DNA of 64,000 bases from a bacterium (GTDB lineage: Bacteria > Vulcanimicrobiota > JABDET01). Shown piece by piece: positions 16,057 to 63,791 of the stretch. The stretch is from NCBI GenBank assembly GCA_021817145.1, contig JAKAVV010000007.1, forward strand, positions 66,957 through 130,956, read 5' to 3'. Both the position numbers and the translations under genes were made by a program. How positions within the stretch are numbered: the stretch's first letter is position 1; each line of letters starts with the position of its first letter. The notes under the pieces were generated by a model that saw nothing but the letters and a program-made list of their open reading frames with translations, was not told the origin of the DNA and did no database searches.

Positions 16057-17124
16057 TTAAACGAATTTACTGTGGTGGTTTTTCAATCTTTTTACTGCCA
16101 GTTCCACAATTTCAGGAACGATTTCGTATCCTACCCCATTTCTTCCCAGATCCGCAGCAGCTTTTAAAGTGGTTCCACTCCCAAGAAAAGGATCAAGAAC
16201 ACTTTCACTTTTATAAGTAAAAGCTTTAATGAGTCGATAAGGCAGTTCATAAGGAAATGGTGCTGCATGGGAGCGGTGGTCTCCGCTTTTCTCGGGATTC
16301 ATTATCCAGACATCTGAGTTTTTGATCTTCAGCCAAAAATCCTTATCCAATTTTGAAGCCTCTTTCTGCTCTTTTGTTAAATGCCCATATTTATCGAACC
16401 CTTTTTTTTCGGGTTTATTAAACTCTAAAATAAATTCGTGCATGTTGTTGATTAAAATGCCGCCTGGGAAGGGATAGGTTCCAAAATGAGCTCTTACTCC
16501 ATTGGTTTTATGCCACACAATATCCCTTTTAAAAATAAATCCAATCTTTTCCATCAGATCAATGGTTCTACCTGCCAAATTTAAAGATTTAAACCCTTCT
16601 TTATTTCGCACAGGCAAATTCATGATATTAACAAAAGCCTTTCTCCCTGGCTGCAAAACCCTAAAGACCTCTTTCCACACCATTCCAATGGCTTCGAACC
16701 ATTCATCCAGTCCATGGATATCCCCAAGGTTATTTTCTATCGGATCTTTCGTGTACATTTTTGCGTTAAAATAAGGGGGTGAAGTGACCATTAAATGAAC
16801 AGAATCATCCTCTAATTCTTTCATGTTCATGGCATTGGCAGTATAAATTTTCTGTGTCGTATCATTGATCTTGAGAATGTTCTCCGCAGGAACTTCTTTT
16901 TTTGTTTCTTTATTTAACTTTGGCAGACTTTTTTCATGCTCGATCAGATCCTGCAGATCAAATCTCTTCTGCCCGCTGGCAGCTGTCAGGTATCGAATTT
17001 TTTCAGCTTTAGCCAGCCTATGCAAAATTTCAACGGAAATTCCAAGCCATTTCGCAGCTTCAATAGAAGATAAGTATTTTCTCTCTTCGTAATCCTTATA
17101 GCCATTCTTTACAGAAGCCTTCAC
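16057..17124 (-). CDS. DNA methyltransferase, β-class (N4-cytosine or N6-adenine) with an N-terminal HTH domain
   Basis: SPPY motif IV (MVTSPPYFN) precedes motif I (LDPFLGSGTT), which is the β-class order. An N-terminal HTH is present (LSSIEAAKWLGISVEILHRLAKAEKI). Confidence 0.85.
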   Translation of the reverse strand: MKASVKNGYKDYEERKYLSSIEAAKWLGISVEILHRLAKAEKIRYLTAASGQKRFDLQDLIEHEKSLPKLNKETKKEVPAENILKINDTTQKIYTANAMNMKELEDDSVHLMVTSPPYFNAKMYTKDPIENNLGDIHGLDEWFEAIGMVWKEVFRVLQPGRKAFVNIMNLPVRNKEGFKSLNLAGRTIDLMEKIGFIFKRDIVWHKTNGVRAHFGTYPFPGGILINNMHEFILEFNKPEKKGFDKYGHLTKEQKEASKLDKDFWLKIKNSDVWIMNPEKSGDHRSHAAPFPYELPYRLIKAFTYKSESVLDPFLGSGTTLKAAADLGRNGVGYEIVPEIVELAVKRLKNHHSKFV

Positions 17125-53560: not shown

Positions 53561-55219
53561 ATGTCAGTTGGACTTGTTCTTGGAACCAGAGAATCTTCTC
53601 CCCTTGAGTTTTGGGTCGGAGTGGAAGAAGGGGAGTATCTTCAGCTCGATGATCTGGTAACTGTTCAAACAGAAGTTCCTGGAAAAAATGAAACGGTCAC
53701 ATTTTATGGAGTAGTGGATTTTGTCGCTAAAAAATTTGAAGGGACGCAGTTTGACTCAGATACCGCTTTAGCAGTAGGCGGGGTTTTGCCTGTTACCCTT
53801 TCTCATGCAGCCCATGTGGTGGTTACCAGGATTGAACCTGAACGATACATCCCTCCCCATCCAGGAAATAAAGTTTACCGCTGCACAGGGGACCAGGTCA
53901 GCCATGGGCTTTATTTTGATAGAATGGAGAAAAAGATCCCTGTTGGATTAAGCAAAACAGGGGATCCGATTTACTTAAATTGGGAGTTTTTAAATGGAGA
54001 AAAAGGGGCTCATGTCAGTATTTCAGGGATATCGGGGATTGCCACAAAAACGACGTTTGCCACTTTTCTTTTGTACAGTTTATTTCACTCAGGAGTTTTA
54101 GGAAATGAAGCTCCTAATACCCATGCTATTATTTTCAATGTTAAAGGGGAGGATCTGCTTTTTTTAGATAGGAAAAACAAAAAGTTTTCGGAAGAAGAGA
54201 AAAAAAAGTATGAGAGATTGAATTTAAGCCTTTCCCCTTTTGAATCTGTCTCCTTCCATGCCCCTGCAAAACCTCATGAATCTCTTTTAATCCCTGCCAC
54301 AACAACAAGAACCCAGGATGTCAAACCATTTTTCTGGACATTAAGACAGGTTGCCAGAGAAAGACTGCTTGGGTATTTCTTTGAAGAAGGGGGGGAAGAC
54401 CTGGGAATGATGGAACACGCGATCTCTGTTTTAATGGAAAAGCTGTTCCAGTTAGCTCAAGATGATAAACCAGATGATACCCCTTTGGTTTCGCAGTCTG
54501 GTTCTATGATGAATTCTCTGGATGATTTGCTAAATGATTTGCGTGACCATCCGGATGACTGGTATGGTTCAACACAAGTCGCTTCTCAAACTCAAAGAGC
54601 AATTTTTAGAAGACTGAGCCAGGCTCTGCAGCATGGCGGTTCACTGGTTAGACCCCTGCCCCCTGCCAGCAAATTATCCGATTATCAAATCTCCTGGAAA
54701 GAAAAACAGTTGACTGTGATTGACCTGCATACCCTGCAGTCAGGAGCAAAAATGTTTGTGGTAGGATCTGTTTTAAAGAAAGTTTTCGAAGAAAAAGAAA
54801 AAACAGGGACTGCTCTTCCCCGCGTTTTTATTGTTGTGGATGAATTGAACAAATACGCTCCAAGAGATGGCTGGAGCCCGATTAAAAACAAACTGCTGGA
54901 TATTGCTGAAAGAGGGAGAAGTCTTGGGATTATTTTAATTGGAGCCCAGCAGACAGCCAGTGAAGTGGAGCGAAGGATCTTTGGAAATGCCGCGATTAAA
55001 GTGGCGGGAAGACTGGATGCTTCAGAAGCAGAACACTCGGAGTACGATTTTTTAACCACGACTTTCAGGAAAAGAGCGATCATGCTGAATCCAGGAACCA
55101 TGATTATCACTCAACCCGATGTTCCAACCCCTGTTTTGATCCAGACCCCTTTCCCCTTATGGGCAACTCGTCCTCAAGAAGCCGAAGTTCCTGAAGATTT
55201 GTTTGAAAAGATTTTTTAA
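53561..55219 (+). CDS. HerA/DUF87-family ATPase (HAS-barrel plus RecA-like core), solitary
   Basis: An N-terminal HAS-barrel-like region is present. The Walker B is VFIVVDELNKYAP and the C-terminal motif is ILIGAQQTASEV ... IKVAGRL. The Walker A is atypical, reading GISGIATKTT. Confidence 0.6.
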   Translation: MSVGLVLGTRESSPLEFWVGVEEGEYLQLDDLVTVQTEVPGKNETVTFYGVVDFVAKKFEGTQFDSDTALAVGGVLPVTLSHAAHVVVTRIEPERYIPPHPGNKVYRCTGDQVSHGLYFDRMEKKIPVGLSKTGDPIYLNWEFLNGEKGAHVSISGISGIATKTTFATFLLYSLFHSGVLGNEAPNTHAIIFNVKGEDLLFLDRKNKKFSEEEKKKYERLNLSLSPFESVSFHAPAKPHESLLIPATTTRTQDVKPFFWTLRQVARERLLGYFFEEGGEDLGMMEHAISVLMEKLFQLAQDDKPDDTPLVSQSGSMMNSLDDLLNDLRDHPDDWYGSTQVASQTQRAIFRRLSQALQHGGSLVRPLPPASKLSDYQISWKEKQLTVIDLHTLQSGAKMFVVGSVLKKVFEEKEKTGTALPRVFIVVDELNKYAPRDGWSPIKNKLLDIAERGRSLGIILIGAQQTASEVERRIFGNAAIKVAGRLDASEAEHSEYDFLTTTFRKRAIMLNPGTMIITQPDVPTPVLIQTPFPLWATRPQEAEVPEDLFEKIF

Positions 55220-55314: not shown

Positions 55315-55530
55315 ATGGACGCTAGTGTGCCCTCCTGTAGGATGCCTGAAACTTGGTGCGGTTATAACTGCGATGCGCAATGCCTGCATTGTTGCCCTAT
55401 ACATGGCTGTTGTGATCATTGTAATGATGCTTGCATGTGTCGTTTGGGCAATTGCTGCTCAGGAATACCTCCAGGAACCATACACTCAACTGCAACTTCC
55501 TGTCGAAACAGCTGTCTTTGCCCTGATTAG
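55315..55530 (+). CDS. Very Cys-rich 71-aa ORF; alternatively the overlapping +1 frame 55325..55546 encodes a single-TM peptide
   Basis: TG-rich DNA gives Cys codons in one frame and a VVIIVMMLACVVWAIAA helix in the other. The true coding frame is unresolved. Confidence 0.2.
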   Translation: MDASVPSCRMPETWCGYNCDAQCLHCCPIHGCCDHCNDACMCRLGNCCSGIPPGTIHSTATSCRNSCLCPD

Positions 55531-55650
55531 AGCGTCTCCTGTTTAATTCAAAACTGCATGTTCTGCATCTTTCTCTTTTTCTTGTTTAAAGTTTCAGAAG
55601 GATTTAATCCTTTTTTGACAAAATTTTCGGGGTAGGATCTAGGAGGTGAT

Positions 55651-56616
55651 TTGGGGATCAGAACTCTCGATCTTTTTGCAGGGTGTGGTGGGAGCAGTCA
55701 GGGTGCCCGCTATGCAGGGTGTGAGATTGTTTCAGCCATTGATAAATGGAAACTGGCTGAGACTACTTTTAAGGATAATTTCCCAAAAACGCGTTTTTAC
55801 TGTGAGGAGATGGACTCCTTTACTTCAAAGCGGATACGCGCCGAGTTTAATAACATTGATTTGATTCTGGCGTCTCCTGAGTGTACAAATCATACCTGTG
55901 CTAAAGGAGGTGTTCGACGCTCTGAGGATATACGCTCTGAGGATAGCAGAAAGACGGCATTTCACGTTCTTAAGTTCGCCAAAGAGTTAATGCCTCGCTG
56001 GATTGTTATCGAAAATGTAACCCAGATGAGATCATGGTCCAGATATGCCGAATTTATCGAGAGTTTGCGCAGGGCGGGATCGGGGTATCAGGTCCGTGAG
56101 CAGGTTCTAAATTCGGCCGATTTCGGTGTGCCGCAGCGGAGGGTACGCCTGTTCATCCTTTGTGATCGAAAAAGAAAACCTCCTGAGGTGTTGCCGACTA
56201 GAAGAAGATGGGTCCCTATTGGTAAGTTTCTTGAAATGAACGGGAAATATTCATTAACGCCGCTTTATAGTAAGGGGCGTGCTGAGCGTACTATAGAACG
56301 TGCGAGACGAGCCATTAAGGAGCTCGAGAGAGATACACCCTTTCTCATTGTGTATTACGGCAACGATTCAGCGGGTGGCTGGCAGAGGCTGGATGCCCCG
56401 CTTCGCACGATTACGACGCTGGATCGTTTTGCCCTTGTCAGAAAGGAGGGTCGGTACTTAATGAGAATGCTGCAGGTTCCGGAACTGCAGGCTGCCATGG
56501 GATTTCCTGACAATTACAAATTTGAATTTGGGAGCAGGAGAGAAAAAATTCACTTACTGGGCAACGCCGTCTGTCCACCTGTTATGAAGGCGGTTGTTTC
56601 TCGCCTTACACATTGA
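55651..56616 (+). CDS. DNA (cytosine-5)-methyltransferase
   Basis: Motif I is LDLFAGCGG, motif IV is the PC-like ASPEC, motif VI is VIENV and motif VIII is VPQRRVRLFI. This gene marks the start of the higher-G+C island. Confidence 0.8.
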   Translation: MGIRTLDLFAGCGGSSQGARYAGCEIVSAIDKWKLAETTFKDNFPKTRFYCEEMDSFTSKRIRAEFNNIDLILASPECTNHTCAKGGVRRSEDIRSEDSRKTAFHVLKFAKELMPRWIVIENVTQMRSWSRYAEFIESLRRAGSGYQVREQVLNSADFGVPQRRVRLFILCDRKRKPPEVLPTRRRWVPIGKFLEMNGKYSLTPLYSKGRAERTIERARRAIKELERDTPFLIVYYGNDSAGGWQRLDAPLRTITTLDRFALVRKEGRYLMRMLQVPELQAAMGFPDNYKFEFGSRREKIHLLGNAVCPPVMKAVVSRLTH

Positions 56617-57305
56617 GGCAACTGGACGAGGCTAAGCTCAGGTTTTTCACCAGGAAATTGCTGGCCTGGTCCAGAGACAATCTTCGTAGCTATCCCTGGC
56701 GGAGAACCCGTAGTCCGTATCGCGTACTTATTGCGGAGCTCATGCTTCGGAGGACGCGGGCAGATCAGGTATTACCAGTCTATCGCCTTTTCATGCGTCG
56801 GTTTCCAACCCTGCGAGATTTCCTTGGCGGCACCGCGCAGGAGATACTAAAATTACTGAAACCGCTCGGGTTGCGCTGGAGGGCCAGGAATTTTATTTCC
56901 TTGCGCGATTATCTTGAAAAACATTCTATAAAGGTGTTGCCTCTCGAGTATCGCCTGCTGACGGCAATGCCCGGCATCGGCGATTATGTGGCCCGTGCCT
57001 TGCTTTGTTTTACAGGTGAATCGCCCGTTTACTTAGTGGACGTGAACGTAATCAGGCTTGTATGTAGATTCTTTGGATACCAAAATAATCCGGAACTCAG
57101 ACGGCGGAAATGGTTCCGTGAAATCATGGAGGCTTTGACCCTGCGGAAAAGGTGCCGCGAGTTTGTGCAGGTGACTCTGGATTTACCTGCCACGGTTTGC
57201 TTACCGAAAAAGCCAAAATGTGGGATATGTCCCTTGTTCCGGCGATGCTCTTATGGAGCTATGCTGTCGGTACCGCCGGATAACATGGGAAAGACCATTC
57301 TTTAA
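56613..57305 (+). CDS. HhH-GPD superfamily DNA glycosylase (EndoIII/MutY/Mig family) with a [4Fe-4S] cluster loop
   Basis: The helix-hairpin-helix is LTAMPGIGDYVARALL and the catalytic Asp region is LVDVNVIRL. The FCL motif is C-x6-C-x2-C-x5-C (CLPKKPKCGICPLFRRC). A TTG start overlaps the methyltransferase stop. Confidence 0.75.
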   Translation: MRQLDEAKLRFFTRKLLAWSRDNLRSYPWRRTRSPYRVLIAELMLRRTRADQVLPVYRLFMRRFPTLRDFLGGTAQEILKLLKPLGLRWRARNFISLRDYLEKHSIKVLPLEYRLLTAMPGIGDYVARALLCFTGESPVYLVDVNVIRLVCRFFGYQNNPELRRRKWFREIMEALTLRKRCREFVQVTLDLPATVCLPKKPKCGICPLFRRCSYGAMLSVPPDNMGKTIL

Positions 57306-57574: not shown

Positions 57575-58669
57575 GTGGCAGAAAACCCGGACGCGGCTTC
57601 ACTAAAATTTGCAGACCTCCTTTCCCAGAGGAAGTGGGAGAGTTATGAGCAATTTGTCTCCGAGGCGCCCGGATTCTATCAACAGGAACTCGAAGAGGAC
57701 ATCAAGCGCGAAGAAGGTCTGCGCGAAAAGATCAGGAAAGACCTTCTCCTTCACAAGTTCGAAGTAAAGAGCTACCGCGATCAGCTTGGTGAGGCAGAGA
57801 AGCTTCTTTTCTCAGGACGTGTTATAGCCATAGACGGGACCGTCTCAAAATTTAAAACCCTCTCAGGCCTGCGCTGCCAGATCGGCGTGGTGGCGGTAAA
57901 CTACTTCAATGATATGGTAAGGAAAGCTTACTTCATCTCAGAAGCCAGCCTCCGCAATGAGGAAAGCGAAGTCCTGGAAATCATCAAGAACCGCGAACAG
58001 CGCAATCGTCTCCTCTCTGACATGGTGGTCAGGGCACTTATGCTTTACCGCGAAAGGGAAGTTGCCATGAGGTCCGAGTATCTGGAAAGTTTCAGAATGC
58101 TGCACGGCCCTCTCCTTCCATTTGAGCTCATGACAGGCCTCGGACGCTTAAGGGCCCTGGAAGCAACGCTGGGGATACTCCAGTCGGTGGCAGCCGATCC
58201 AAAGTGCTTCAGCATTATTTCGGCCTCCACCCACGATGACTACCTGACGCTCGGGATGGCTCTTGAGCCGGGCGAATATATGCGGGACCCGAATTTCTCG
58301 CTCGGAGATGAGATAGCAGAAAACAAGGACTTCATGGTGGCTGAAAAATGGCGAGAATCTGAATTCGAAAGAGTAAAGGGTTTCTTGAGGACATTCGCTG
58401 ATAAGATTCACATAGGAATAATCCGGGTGTCCGGACACCCTTACGTGTTTTACGCCCACAAGGACACGTTTGATCTTGCAGTAGCCATTATCGCAAGAGA
58501 CTCCTTGCTCCAGAAGGAAAAAGGCTTCCCGTTGCTGGTGGACTATGCAGACACACTTTGCTCCGAATTCTTCCCTCCAGGGGACTTCACCGGTCAACTT
58601 TTATACAAACTTGCACAGGAAGGACACTTCCTTTCCGAAATAAGTGAAAGGGCTTTGCGTCAAAAATAA
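57575..58669 (+). CDS. NurA-like nuclease (putative)
   Basis: RVIAIDGTVSKF resembles the NurA catalytic 'hhAIDGS' motif. The ORF overlaps the downstream HerA-like gene by 26 bp. Confidence 0.45.
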   Translation: MAENPDAASLKFADLLSQRKWESYEQFVSEAPGFYQQELEEDIKREEGLREKIRKDLLLHKFEVKSYRDQLGEAEKLLFSGRVIAIDGTVSKFKTLSGLRCQIGVVAVNYFNDMVRKAYFISEASLRNEESEVLEIIKNREQRNRLLSDMVVRALMLYREREVAMRSEYLESFRMLHGPLLPFELMTGLGRLRALEATLGILQSVAADPKCFSIISASTHDDYLTLGMALEPGEYMRDPNFSLGDEIAENKDFMVAEKWRESEFERVKGFLRTFADKIHIGIIRVSGHPYVFYAHKDTFDLAVAIIARDSLLQKEKGFPLLVDYADTLCSEFFPPGDFTGQLLYKLAQEGHFLSEISERALRQK

Positions 58670-60368
58670 GGAGGACTTCATGACCGAAATCATAACAGGG
58701 GAAGCGCAGAAAGGTACCGATAAAACAACCCCCTCGCAGCAGCGAAAGGATCCCCTCGGGTTCGTGAATTTTGACGGGTCTTCTGGAGACAACAGCCTCG
58801 TCGATGTGCGGGTACCCCAGGATAGAATCGAAAGAATAAGGCGGGGGCAGTACGTGTTATTGATTGAGTCCAAAGGGGGAGATTCCTACCTGGGGCGCGT
58901 AACCAAAGGCCCCTTCTATAACCCGGACGCGGTCGGGCGTGACTCGGGCTTTGCGAAAGCCTCAATCCTCATGGGAGACAAAGTAAAATTCCTGCCGGAC
59001 TACCACGCAGTTTGCATGGTGGAAATCCTGGGAAGCGTATATCTGGACACCCTGTCGCTGAGCGGCCATACAACACGTCCCCTTCCAAAGACATTCGTCT
59101 GGGAACTCGATGAAAATAAGATTGAGGAATTACTGAATCTCAGGGGAAACATGTACCTGGGACACCTCGCGGGCTACGAGGGTGTCCGAGTTCACTTCCA
59201 GGCAGGCGACAAAAGGGTATTGCCTCGAAACGTCGGCATTTTCGGGACAGTGGGTTCCGGAAAAACCAACACCTCTCAGGTCCTGATCGAAGAGGCCTCT
59301 GCAGCAGGGTATGCTGTCGCCGTCCTTGACGTGGAAGGCGAGTACGTTTCCATGGACAGATCGAGCGAAGAGTTATCCGTCAGTCCCAGGTTGCGGGAAG
59401 CCGCCAGTCGCTTTGGAATTTCCCCTCGCGGAATCGACAGCCTGCGCGTTTACCGGGTGACGGGAACCGAGTCAAAGAGAAAGGATGCCATCGAGTTCTG
59501 CATAAAATTCGGAGACATTTCCCCGTACACACTGTGCGAGATAATGGGGCTCAACGAAGCTCAGGAACATAGATTTCTTGAACTCTACGACACTGCAGTG
59601 GAATCAGTGAGATCCGGCAAACAGCAACCCGGCGCGAAATCAAAGTGGGACAGACTCAAGGGTGGAGAAGCGGTGGTAGGGTTGGATCGCATCCCGGAAC
59701 TTACGTTGCAACTTCTCATTGATAAACTGCGAACAGACTTTCTCACGGGATCAAAGGGAGCCGACCGGTCCTCCTGGCTTAAGGTGAACCAGTTGCTCCA
59801 TAAACTGAAGCGATACCAGATTTTTGATACACACGAACAGGGATTGAACGTAAACGACCTTCTGACGCCAGGTCGGGTGAGCATATTTGATCTGAGCGAT
59901 TCCACCAACACGAGAATCAATAACATTGTCATCGCAGACATTCTCAGGCGCGTTTTTGATCACAAACTGAACAACGAAGATGCTCCTCCGACCCTGATCA
60001 TGATTGAGGAAGCGCATACTTTTGTAAGCCGCGAAAACGTATCGAAAATGGAATTTACAGTGGATCAGCTTCGGGAAATCAGCAGAAGAGGGCGCAAGCG
60101 ATGGCTGGGACTCTGCTTCATCTCCCAGCAGCCTGCTCATCTTCCTGACGAGCTGTACGAGCTCTGCAACACAAAAATCATTCACCAGACGACCGGCAAG
60201 AAAAACCTGGATGCCCTTCGCACTTCTGCAGGAAATGTGAACGAAGCGGTCTGGAGCGAAGTCCCGATCCTGGGCCAAGGTCGTAGCGTGATCATCAGCC
60301 CGCAGTTCACGCACCCCGTTCTCTGCGACATGAGGCCATGTCAGACGCACAGGGAATACACGGATTGA
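58644..60368 (+). CDS. HerA/DUF87-family ATPase
   Basis: The Walker A GIFGTVGSGKTNTSQ and Walker B LIMIEEAHTFVS are present. The C-terminal motif is CFISQQPAHL...CNTKIIHQ. Confidence 0.75.
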   Translation: MKGLCVKNKEDFMTEIITGEAQKGTDKTTPSQQRKDPLGFVNFDGSSGDNSLVDVRVPQDRIERIRRGQYVLLIESKGGDSYLGRVTKGPFYNPDAVGRDSGFAKASILMGDKVKFLPDYHAVCMVEILGSVYLDTLSLSGHTTRPLPKTFVWELDENKIEELLNLRGNMYLGHLAGYEGVRVHFQAGDKRVLPRNVGIFGTVGSGKTNTSQVLIEEASAAGYAVAVLDVEGEYVSMDRSSEELSVSPRLREAASRFGISPRGIDSLRVYRVTGTESKRKDAIEFCIKFGDISPYTLCEIMGLNEAQEHRFLELYDTAVESVRSGKQQPGAKSKWDRLKGGEAVVGLDRIPELTLQLLIDKLRTDFLTGSKGADRSSWLKVNQLLHKLKRYQIFDTHEQGLNVNDLLTPGRVSIFDLSDSTNTRINNIVIADILRRVFDHKLNNEDAPPTLIMIEEAHTFVSRENVSKMEFTVDQLREISRRGRKRWLGLCFISQQPAHLPDELYELCNTKIIHQTTGKKNLDALRTSAGNVNEAVWSEVPILGQGRSVIISPQFTHPVLCDMRPCQTHREYTD

Positions 60369-62625: not shown

Positions 62626-63791
62626 AAGTCATCTTGCTGGATGATCACGCCGATACAATGGAGGAAGCTATCAGGTCCATTCGTGATTCGGGTGTGCAAT
62701 GTGAGCCCCTCAGGAACATCAGCGAACTCGAAAACTTACTGAACAAAGGTGAACCCTTTGATGGTGTAATCCTCGACTGGTTCCTGGACGACGAACCGGA
62801 CTCCAACCTTGCTAAAATTAGTCTGCAGAAGATAAGGGAGCATAGATTCGTCCCCGTCTTCGTTTACACCGAACACCGTACAGAATATGAAAGAGAAGCT
62901 GACTCGATTGATTTTCCTAGATCCTGCATAAGCTCCTTCAGCAAGAAAGCTTTGCCCGAGTCCAATCTTGGCGCGAAGATCAAGGAATGGCTTGACGGGT
63001 TTTTCGCAGGAAAAATTTCCAGAAGCTGGCGGAAAGCAAACCAGGGCGCAATCGAGAAGGTTCTCTATGAACTGGCCAGCATGGACGATGACGGAGTTGT
63101 AGGCTCCCTACAACGCATGATCCAGAGTGAAAATGGAGAAGCATACGACGTTGATCACGCCCTTGAGTTGCTGCACCGAATCAGCGTGCGAGTGCTGTCG
63201 AATGATGCGAAACTGCGGAGCATCCTTAAAAGTTGCTTAAAGTCCAAAACAAACAATAAAAAAGCGACTGAAATGAAAATTTGGCAATTCCACATGTATT
63301 ACCAGCCAGGCGGCGACATCGTCAGGGCTGGTGACATTGTTCAGAGCAAACGGGACAGTCATGAGGAAATGGAATATTTCGTAATCCTTACCCCGGCCTG
63401 CGATCTCGCCCAGTTTAAAACCACATACCTGCGTCTCGTGAGAATGATCCCACATAACTTCGCTGATGGAGAACCACCTCGACACCTTTATTTCCTCCCG
63501 TTCGTTCCGCTGGATGCCACGAAGATCGCTGATTTTGCAATTGACTTTCATCAGTCCTTTGCGGTTCGCAATGAGAGCATCGAACAGGAATGGCAAAAGC
63601 TACAGAAGGAGAAAGGTCAGAAAAAACTGCCAAAGATCAACATGGCTTACAGCCACAAGTATCAAGAGATGTCTGGAGAAGGAATCGTCTTGAAGTGCAT
63701 TGCCCGCCTGGATGATCCTTACAGATCCGATCTTTTCCAAAAATTCTCCTCCCACGCAAGCAGAATTGGAGTACCAGATGTGTCGAGCTAA
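62622..63791 (+). CDS. Receiver (REC)-domain protein with an uncharacterised roughly 260-aa C-terminal domain
   Basis: The N-terminus MKVILLDDHADTMEE...FDGVILDWFL has the acidic pocket and a phospho-acceptor Asp candidate. The start overlaps the kinase stop as ATGA. Confidence 0.5.
   Translation: MKVILLDDHADTMEEAIRSIRDSGVQCEPLRNISELENLLNKGEPFDGVILDWFLDDEPDSNLAKISLQKIREHRFVPVFVYTEHRTEYEREADSIDFPRSCISSFSKKALPESNLGAKIKEWLDGFFAGKISRSWRKANQGAIEKVLYELASMDDDGVVGSLQRMIQSENGEAYDVDHALELLHRISVRVLSNDAKLRSILKSCLKSKTNNKKATEMKIWQFHMYYQPGGDIVRAGDIVQSKRDSHEEMEYFVILTPACDLAQFKTTYLRLVRMIPHNFADGEPPRHLYFLPFVPLDATKIADFAIDFHQSFAVRNESIEQEWQKLQKEKGQKKLPKINMAYSHKYQEMSGEGIVLKCIARLDDPYRSDLFQKFSSHASRIGVPDVSS

Follow-up and report, generated by a model that had tools for sequence, protein, structure and literature searches.

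What does a gene for a base-excising glycosylase do at the very end of a DNA methyltransferase gene? This question is raised by positions 55651-57305 of a 64,000-nucleotide (nt) stretch of contig JAKAVV010000007.1, which belongs to a bacterium of the phylum Vulcanimicrobiota (assembly GCA_021817145.1). The whole stretch is referred to here as the window. The region under study holds two overlapping open reading frames (ORFs), the first for a predicted C5-cytosine DNA methyltransferase and the second for a protein of 230 amino acids (aa) with an HhH-GPD domain and an iron-sulfur cluster loop. An initial annotation, made from the letters of the DNA, had read the second gene as a Mig.MthI-like substitute for the repair endonuclease Vsr. 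The analysis described below leads to the same reading: the 230-aa protein is very probably a Mig.MthI-type mismatch glycosylase and the repair partner of the methyltransferase in an acquired cassette. By its sequence, it is related to the catalytic domain of MutY and is without the C-terminal domain that reads 8-oxoguanine (8-oxoG).

The combination of a methylase with a Mig-type glycosylase has had a precedent since 1996. Mig.MthI is encoded beside the GGCC methyltransferase M.MthTI on plasmid pFV1 of Methanothermobacter. Its activity is that of a T/G and U/G mismatch glycosylase (PMC2714593, PMC3260424). In the comparisons that follow, the loci and contigs are labelled L001-L088, L001 being the contig of the window as it continues beyond the window.

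Assignment of the glycosylase

The 230-aa protein matched the Pfam HhH-GPD model with 34.2 bits (cut-off 26.2). The catalytic Asp that had been placed in LVDVNVIRL was found as Asp143, which in alignments takes the place of Asp144 in Mig.MthI and of the catalytic Asp in MutY; Glu42, the Glu of the E-x-x-L-x-x-T helix, aligned with Glu42 of Mig.MthI. Both residues were invariant in a set of 40 relatives and in a larger one of 78. The cluster loop C-x6-C-x2-C-x5-C was present as C196, C203, C206 and C212, all invariant or nearly so in the 40 relatives. The protein ends 18 residues past the last of these cysteines and is therefore without the NUDIX-like C-terminal domain of MutY.

Among the NCBIfam models the best match was mutY (TIGR01084), which gave 155.2 bits (E 2.5e-45) over positions 2-207 of 277, far from its cut-off of 286.5 bits. 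The nth model (TIGR01083) gave 33.8 bits, with a cut-off of 211.7. When the PDB was searched with the single sequence, Mig.MthI (1KEA) was the top match with 119.9 bits, followed by the catalytic domains of MutY proteins (about 100-110 bits) and endonuclease III (EndoIII, at most 49 bits). The alignment with 1KEA covered residues 8-215 of the glycosylase and 8-216 of the 221 residues of 1KEA. A search with a profile of the 40 relatives gave 212.6 bits for 1KEA, 194.8 for Bacillus MutY, about 160 for Escherichia coli MutY and at most 96 for EndoIII, so that the margin of 1KEA over the catalytic domain of Bacillus MutY is small (10-18 bits).

A neighbour-joining tree of 86 sequences comprised the window protein with 77 other short relatives, seven full-length MutY-like proteins (one of these entries being the catalytic domain of Bacillus MutY) and Mig.MthI. 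The homologues were at least 195 aa long, and 78 of the 85 were short (about 200-290 aa). The seven MutY sequences split off in 100 of 100 bootstraps, and Mig.MthI was nested within the short family in 80 of 100.

The residues that set Mig.MthI apart from MutY are F27, R47, A50, Y126 and L187, while E42 and D144 are catalytic; F27, E42, R47, A50, Y126 and D144 are considered important for its removal of thymine (PMC2714593). In the window protein, the counterparts were found to be Y27, E42, R47, A50, Y125 and D143. R47 was invariant in the 78 short proteins and A50 was kept in 67 of them, whereas the MutY proteins carry Q and I/V at these positions; the window enzyme reads LRRT, with Ala50, in place of the LQQT and Val/Ile of MutY. 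Since Tyr125 stands at the position of the nucleophilic Lys of EndoIII/Nth, a monofunctional enzyme is expected. The change Y126K is described as turning MIG into a lyase (PMC9945173).

Three other identities were considered and rejected. For Nth (endonuclease III), the model remained far below its cut-off and Tyr125 replaces the catalytic Lys. For MutY, the equivalog cut-off was missed, the C-terminal 8-oxoG-recognition domain is absent, and LRRT/Ala50 is found instead of LQQT/Val45. For Vsr, no match to the family (PF03852) was obtained, and the relation would be one of functional analogy instead. The comparison with Mig.MthI and with the MutY and Nth clades had been set in advance by the initial annotation; in it, the protein was grouped with neither MutY nor Nth, 1KEA was the best match and the tree agreed. 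A PADLOC model of 221 positions, filed as "Type II nicking endonuclease", matched the residue range that 1KEA covers, scored much as 1KEA did, and presumably derives from Mig.MthI.

The likeness to Mig.MthI thus includes the length (230 and 221 aa), the HhH-GPD domain, the spacing of the cluster, the missing MutY C-terminal domain, the equivalents of E42, R47, A50, Y126 and D144, and the position beside a C5-methyltransferase gene. The two proteins differ in sequence (about 32% identity) and at one signature residue, Gln186 in the window protein and Leu187 in Mig.MthI. They also differ in their setting: the host of the window gene is a bacterium which, by sequence, is not obviously thermophilic, the gene overlaps the stop codon of the methyltransferase, and the type II endonuclease is replaced by a cassette of NurA, HerA, GHKL and receiver genes. 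With MutY, the protein shares a homologous catalytic domain, the iron-sulfur cluster, the conserved Glu and Asp and, through Gln186, the equivalent of MutY Gln182. It differs from MutY in the absence of the C-terminal domain, the score below the equivalog cut-off, the LRRT/Ala50 signature, the separate clade and the link to methyltransferases.

Overlap with the methyltransferase gene

The coordinates of both ORFs, and the TTG/TGA overlap, had been given exactly to the base in the initial annotation (Table 1). The methyltransferase frame ends with ACA CAT TGA, and the TTG of the glycosylase (56613-56615) is composed of the T of CAT and the TG of TGA. No start lies further upstream in the glycosylase ORF than this TTG, and a start at the next candidate, codon 16, would cost the protein residues alignable with Mig.MthI, the alignment beginning at residue 8. 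In the public record of a metagenome-assembled genome (GCA_027421825.1, contig DAIBGJ010000006.1) the same two genes are annotated with the identical overlap. No Shine-Dalgarno-like purine run was found in the 17 nt that precede the glycosylase TTG. The missing ribosome-binding site and the TTGA overlap together fit a translational coupling of the glycosylase to the methyltransferase. Overlaps or very short gaps were the rule in related methyltransferase-glycosylase loci.

The upstream gene does encode a C5-cytosine methyltransferase by all family criteria used. The match to Pfam PF00145 (DNA_methylase) was full-length (E 1.6e-40, profile positions 1-322 of 324), and the NCBIfam model TIGR00675 (dcm superfamily) was passed with 113 bits (cut-off 100.65). 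Motifs I (DLFAGCGG), IV (ASPECTNH, including Cys78), VI (IENV), VIII (QRRVRLF) and X (GNAVCPPV) were all recognized. Cys78 is kept in an orthologue of 56% identity (L057) as well as in L047, and no reason was seen to suppose that the enzyme is not active.

Distribution of the pair

In order to place the pair in a wider context, one genome per species was scanned for the signature of the glycosylase family. This yielded 42 loci in eight phyla, recorded as Chloroflexota, Armatimonadota, Leptospirales, Acidobacteriota, Bacillota, Planctomycetota and Atribacterota plus one Nitrososphaera archaeon. A C5-methyltransferase gene was located within 6 kb of the glycosylase relative in 39 of the 42 other genomes, and the remaining three loci include two short contigs. 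The methyltransferase was directly upstream on the same strand in 31 loci, overlapping or within about 220 nt and usually with an overlap or a few bases between the genes. It was adjacent in the other orientation in two more loci, and 0.6-2 kb away in six. The pairing of methyltransferase and glycosylase is not due to chance.

The partner methyltransferases were diverse (phmmer E 1e-22 to 1e-6, 315-560 aa), and the glycosylases were 30-45% identical. Conserved glycosylases beside diverse methyltransferases fit a general accessory for T:G repair better than a site-specific partner, and thus one repair family would serve many methyltransferase specificities.

The neighbours of the pair, inspected in 23 loci (L005-L027), were mixed, and included ResIII helicases, MvaI/BcnI endonucleases, HATPase_c_3/Z1 clusters, DEAD/MZB helicases and GmrSD. 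A scan of the flanking proteins of these loci showed six with FliG domains and four with YegS/DAGK domains. Several pairs of the Leptospirales loci (L017-L044) stand beside housekeeping genes. For this group, the arrangement suggests that a solitary methyltransferase is passed on vertically together with its repair gene. In a Blastocatellia locus (L006, 1155-12351), the pair was observed with a kinase-like/receiver pair upstream and a HATPase_c_3/Z1/DUF4420 (PD-(D/E)XK) cluster downstream. The literature search gave no account of bacterial Mig-type genes beside methyltransferases, an absence that concerns the searched literature only.

Exchange with Vsr

The reading of the glycosylase as a substitute for Vsr was supported by cassettes related to that of the window, which were reached through the NurA-like gene downstream of the pair. 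Three distant homologues of this gene, in Caldilinea, Ignavibacteria and a Woesearchaeota-like archaeon, were found in contexts of the same order: methyltransferase, NurA-like protein, HerA, GHKL/kinase-like protein and a protein of about 385 aa. A vsr gene lies before the methyltransferase gene on the Woesearchaeota-like contig and after the receiver gene on that of Ignavibacteria. In Caldilinea, an apparent gap of 700 bp (L047, 7315-8004) was found to hold an uncalled Mig-like ORF of 229 aa with a TTG start. Coupled genes of the Mig-like kind that start with TTG can therefore escape gene callers.

A scan of metagenomes with the NurA-like family revealed 66 more loci. Cassettes of the methyltransferase/kinase type were present in 40 loci, or 37 after removal of near-identical copies. 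Among these 37 cassettes, Vsr was encoded in 20, a separate Mig-like gene was present in eight, the methyltransferase carried a fused N-terminal HhH-GPD domain in three, and neither type of repair gene was found in six. Vsr and a glycosylase never occurred together (0 of 37). Of the six cassettes with neither, five are cut within 850 nt upstream and a single one has ample upstream sequence (L058, 2464-4110). The methyltransferase of this locus has a C-terminal extension of about 150 aa without a Pfam match, which might be another repair module. The three fusions are single ORFs of 666-749 aa confirmed by Pfam (L050 1511-3508, L055 2970-5216 and L056 2561-4777). These ORFs stand where the window pair stands in its cassette, and the kinship of their HhH-GPD domains with the Mig-like family is only distant (E 1e-13 to 1e-17).

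The closest orthologue of the window methyltransferase, identical in 56% of residues over its whole length, is that of L057. In this locus, the methyltransferase gene is followed by a vsr gene that overlaps its end and then by the NurA-like gene, so that Vsr is in the slot taken by the glycosylase in the window. No other observation on gene context argues as strongly for the function of the glycosylase, and the replacement is a non-orthologous displacement, in which one T:G repair enzyme has taken the place of another. A hidden Markov model built from 22 Vsr proteins gave no Vsr hit at E <= 1 in the window, in the 10 kb downstream or in L001-L046. A Vsr remnant in the 269-nt gap behind the glycosylase gene was considered and rejected (tblastn E >= 0.13, no nucleotide similarity to other cassettes). 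Vsr and the window protein are alike in being encoded beside or overlapping a C5-methyltransferase gene, in correcting, in the latter case by prediction, the T:G mispair left by 5-methylcytosine deamination, and in exchanging places in orthologous cassettes. They have unrelated folds and chemistries: Vsr nicks 5' of the T, while the window protein is predicted to excise the base.

The surrounding island

The proportion of guanine plus cytosine (GC) stays near 0.42 as far as about 55.5 kb of the window and then steps sharply to 0.47-0.53, from the methyltransferase gene to position 63791. Within the 430-nt spacer that precedes the methyltransferase gene, at this GC boundary, lies a small ORF (55325-55546) for a cysteine-rich hydrophobic protein of 73 aa, which is a gene in the public record. 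Past the end of the window, the contig continues with PhdYeFM antitoxin and rve integrase genes (L001). The GC step and these genes mark a mobile island. As judged from the sequence, the pair opens a GC-rich, acquired cassette of six genes, encoding the methyltransferase, the glycosylase, a NurA-fold nuclease, HerA, a GHKL/kinase-like protein and a receiver protein (Table 1).

Table 1. Features of the methyltransferase-glycosylase pair and of the cassette it opens (window coordinates)
Feature	Position	Strand	Basis or remark
GGAGG ribosome-binding site	55642..55646	+	4 nt before the methyltransferase TTG; read from sequence
C5-cytosine DNA methyltransferase, 321 aa, TTG start	55651..56616	+	Pfam PF00145, TIGR00675, PADLOC DrmMII
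TTGA overlap (glycosylase TTG with last sense codon/TGA of the methyltransferase)	56613..56616	+	4 bases, read from sequence
Mig.MthI-type monofunctional HhH-GPD/[4Fe-4S] mismatch glycosylase (predicted), 230 aa, TTG start	56613..57305	+
Glycosylase Glu42 codon	56736-56738
Glycosylase HhH	about 56949-57002
Glycosylase Asp143 codon	57039-57041
Iron-sulfur cluster loop C196-x6-C203-x2-C206-x5-C212	57198..57248	+	Sequence; Pfam EndIII_4Fe-2S
NurA-fold nuclease (predicted), 364 aa	57575..58669	+	VDGT at Asp87; GFPLLVDYAD near C-terminus; Foldseek
HerA/DUF87 ATPase	58644..60368	+	Start uncertain: 58680 in public record, 562 aa
GHKL/histidine-kinase-like protein, 750 aa	60373..62625	+	N-terminal HATPase_c_3 (paraMORC-type), C-terminal HATPase_c
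Receiver-domain protein, 389 aa	62622..63791	+	C-terminal domain about 260 aa

The 364-aa protein gave no Pfam match, the Pfam NurA model included. Its family is 45-65% identical across bacteria and archaea, with an invariant Asp87 in VDGT. The AlphaFold model had a predicted local distance difference test (pLDDT) score of 89.5, and the ten best Foldseek matches in the PDB were all NurA (E 2e-6 to 1e-4, probability 1.0). By its model, the protein is a distant branch of NurA with the RNase H-like NurA fold, encoded immediately before HerA. The HerA protein matched Pfam DUF87 (4.8e-21) and HerA_C, as well as the NCBIfam HerA and CedD models, and its gene always follows the NurA-like gene in related cassettes. 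The pair resembles the archaeal NurA-HerA end-resection complex and the Sir2-HerA and DUF4297-HerA anti-phage systems in that a gene for a NurA-fold nuclease directly precedes one for a HerA-type ATPase. It differs from archaeal NurA-HerA, since similarity to Pfam NurA is undetectable and the genes lie in a mobile methyltransferase cassette and not beside Mre11/Rad50.

In the 750-aa protein, HATPase_c_3 (4.8e-20) and HATPase_c (3.9e-22) were detected, and the N-terminus is similar to the BbrUII/HgiDII family of restriction enzymes (3.4e-15). Homologues adjoin methyltransferase-glycosylase pairs in L006, L016 and L014. The HEF_HK model (PF19191) gave 18.6 bits, below its cut-off of 24.1. Similarly, Response_reg_2 (PF19192) gave 18.2 bits with the 389-aa protein, below the cut-off of 27. 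The structural model of this last protein (pLDDT 87) has an N-terminal domain that superposes on the PhoB and PmrA receivers (template modelling score 0.72-0.80, target-normalised; root-mean-square deviation about 3 A), and the receiver residues D8, D52 and K108 are conserved. Foldseek, run with the whole chain, gave matches to the receiver domain alone and none to the C-terminal domain.

The arrangement is reminiscent of the HEF_HK/Response_reg_2 pair, which occurs beside C5-methyltransferases, restriction-modification genes and Vsr (PMC8011034, Bellieny-Rabelo et al. 2021). The likeness concerns the N-terminal HATPase_c_3, the kinase-like C-terminal HATPase_c, the adjacent receiver protein, the upstream C5-methyltransferase and the T:G repair gene nearby. 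The window differs in the sub-threshold scores of both Pfam models and in its repair gene, a glycosylase right after the methyltransferase and not a Vsr after the receiver. HerA, NurA and HhH-GPD glycosylases are not mentioned in PMC8011034.

The best PADLOC match of the methyltransferase was DISARM DrmMII (PDLC02654, 1.6e-105). A class 2 DISARM system (DrmMII with DrmA, DrmB and DrmC/E) was rejected, as despite this strong match no other DISARM gene is nearby, and the PADLOC scan of the six neighbouring proteins gave no DISARM (Drm) component. The methyltransferase appears to be of a lineage common to DISARM, in a locus that would not be a DISARM system. Outside this region, ten of the window's largest ORFs were also scanned; they were of the housekeeping kind, including GyrA, GcpE, a TonB-dependent receptor and an SNF2 helicase, plus one N6/N4 DNA methylase. 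The latter (16057-17124, minus strand; PF01555, 7e-44) is separated from the island by about 40 kb.

Close to the island on its upstream side, the gene at 53561-55219 encodes a second HerA-like P-loop ATPase, divergent and 552 aa long, with no Pfam match and only weak HerA and mad8 hits. This gene was rejected as a member of the cassette: its GC of 0.42 is host-like, it has no counterpart in related cassettes, and it gave only weak cross-hits to the other HerA. A MADS system was rejected too, because the generic HerA fold accounts for the weak mad8 matches. In the cassette itself, PADLOC v2 recognized only generic parts (the HerA of a NurA/HerA pair). No account of a NurA/HerA/GHKL/receiver cassette was found in the searched literature or in PADLOC v2, which is not proof of novelty. 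Promoter- and terminator-like sites occurred at background frequency, with none in the intergenic gaps, and the Rfam scan of the window gave no hit.

Alternative explanations

Three other explanations of the pair were weighed. According to the first, which is unlikely, the methyltransferase would stand alone, as an orphan accompanied by its repair partner, and the NurA-HerA, kinase-like and receiver genes would belong to an unrelated neighbouring system. The 269-nt gap between the glycosylase and the NurA-like gene would agree with this, as would the pairs elsewhere that are without such neighbours and the lack of a classical type II endonuclease among the proteins of the cassette and its neighbourhood in the Pfam and PADLOC scans. 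However, the gene set recurs in the same order in Caldilinea, in Ignavibacteria, in the Woesearchaeota-like archaeon and in dozens of metagenome contigs. In addition, the GC step begins at the methyltransferase gene and not after the glycosylase gene, the gap contains no terminator-like site, and C5-methyltransferases have been described as partners of the HK-like/RR-like pair (PMC8011034). The initial annotation had left it undecided whether the methyltransferase is an orphan or serves the HerA/NurA module. The recurrent gene set and the NurA fold support the second option, so that the methyltransferase is no orphan and would serve the NurA/HerA module; the first option was given up.

The second alternative, a very unlikely one, sees the protein as a truncated MutY-like adenine glycosylase that acts on A:G or A:8-oxoG, that is, a general repair enzyme for oxidative damage which travels with the island. 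It would explain why mutY is the best NCBIfam match and why relatives of the protein are named "A/G-specific adenine glycosylase" in public sources. Several points weigh in its favour or otherwise against a Mig-type enzyme coupled to its methyltransferase. Pairwise identity is near equal, with 31.8% to Mig.MthI and 31.2% to the N-terminal domain of Bacillus MutY; what carries the assignment is thus the profile of the family, together with the signature residues, the tree and the genomic neighbourhood. This tree is a distance tree with one Mig reference, seven MutY proteins and no outgroup. The match to Pfam EndIII_4Fe-2S (residues 196-212; 19.8 bits, E 0.00098) is just below the cut-off of 20.5, and the proposed translational coupling is read from gene geometry only. 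Above all, Gln186 (57168-57170) is at the position of Mig.MthI Leu187 and corresponds to Gln182 of E. coli MutY. The double change A50V/L187Q moves Mig.MthI from T/G towards A/G (PMC2714593), and Gln186 could accordingly broaden or alter the base preference of the window enzyme.

On the other side, Gln is found at this position in only two of the 78 short relatives, most of them having L, Y, F or W, and a homologue of 68% identity (P0002) has Leu. An adenine glycosylase would be expected neither from the mutY score, 155 of the 286.5 bits needed and confined to the N-terminal domain, nor from the absence of an 8-oxoG-recognition domain, the LRRT and Ala50 signature and the MutY clade, which is separate in every bootstrap. 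It also offers no rationale for the methyltransferase link in 39 of 42 genomes or for the exclusive alternation with Vsr. A preference for T:G is thus likely for the window glycosylase, and is not assured owing to Gln186.

Restriction glycosylases exist in other folds, e.g. R.PabI, and a third alternative, an offensive enzyme that excises bases from unmethylated foreign DNA and passes the apurinic/apyrimidinic (AP) sites or nicks to NurA-HerA, could appeal to the position of the gene between the methyltransferase and the NurA-fold/HerA pair in an acquired island and to the "Type II nicking endonuclease" label of the Mig.MthI-like PADLOC model, but it is hardly credible, as the family also stands behind C5-methyltransferases at many loci that have no NurA, HerA or kinase-like gene (including classical MvaI/BcnI-type restriction-modification contexts and the FliG/YegS housekeeping neighbourhoods of Leptospirales), alternates in the cassette with Vsr, a dedicated T:G repair nuclease, seems to be missing together with Vsr from a few cassettes, and has no sequence-reading domain within its 230 aa.

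Proposed role and significance

A Mig-type glycosylase partnered with its methyltransferase would work as follows, the substrate being proposed by analogy with Mig.MthI. The methyltransferase encoded just upstream would produce 5-methylcytosine, the deamination of which to thymine would create a T:G mispair that is invisible to ordinary uracil repair. The glycosylase would flip out and remove this thymine, and also the uracil of U:G, by means of Asp143 and Glu42. The AP endonuclease, polymerase and ligase of the host would then restore C:G, and the methyltransferase would re-methylate the repaired site. Through the TTGA overlap, and with no ribosome-binding site of its own, synthesis of the repair enzyme would be tied to that of the mutagenic methyltransferase. 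In the dcm-vsr genes of E. coli, synthesis of the repair enzyme is tied to the methyltransferase in a like manner. From their context, the NurA-fold nuclease, HerA, the GHKL/kinase-like protein and the receiver protein probably form a restriction and control arm.

A broader interpretation is offered tentatively, with a probability that falls somewhat short of even. The pair may be the self-protection and damage-control module of an undescribed and widely transferred restriction-like defence system. In such a system, the NurA-fold nuclease would work with a HerA translocase to destroy DNA that lacks methylation, under the control of the paraMORC-type GHKL/kinase-like and phospho-receiver proteins, and T:G repair would be kept almost without exception, by Vsr, by a Mig-type glycosylase or by a fused HhH-GPD domain. 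The defence role of the cassette is suggested by its context.

The pair is a new example of a known principle, with a characterised archaeal precedent in Mig.MthI and a textbook analogue in Vsr. What goes beyond the precedent is the breadth of the bacterial family, most of which is annotated as adenine glycosylase, the alternation among Vsr, Mig-like genes and fused domains, and the little-explored NurA/HerA/GHKL/receiver cassette. The bacterial family of "A/G-specific adenine glycosylases" of about 220 aa is probably misnamed, and is better read as the glycosylase counterpart of Vsr. Accessory genes of this kind would pay the mutagenic cost of 5-methylcytosine. The alternation of Vsr, Mig-like and fused HhH-GPD enzymes within one conserved cassette is a clean natural example of non-orthologous gene displacement, and implies selection against a C5-methyltransferase that is not accompanied by T:G repair. 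The prokaryotic fusions echo the logic of eukaryotic MBD4/TDG, in which the reading of 5-methylcytosine is joined to T:G repair. The cassette, which is highly conserved between Woesearchaeota-like archaea and Chloroflexota, is a candidate for an uncharacterised restriction-like defence system.

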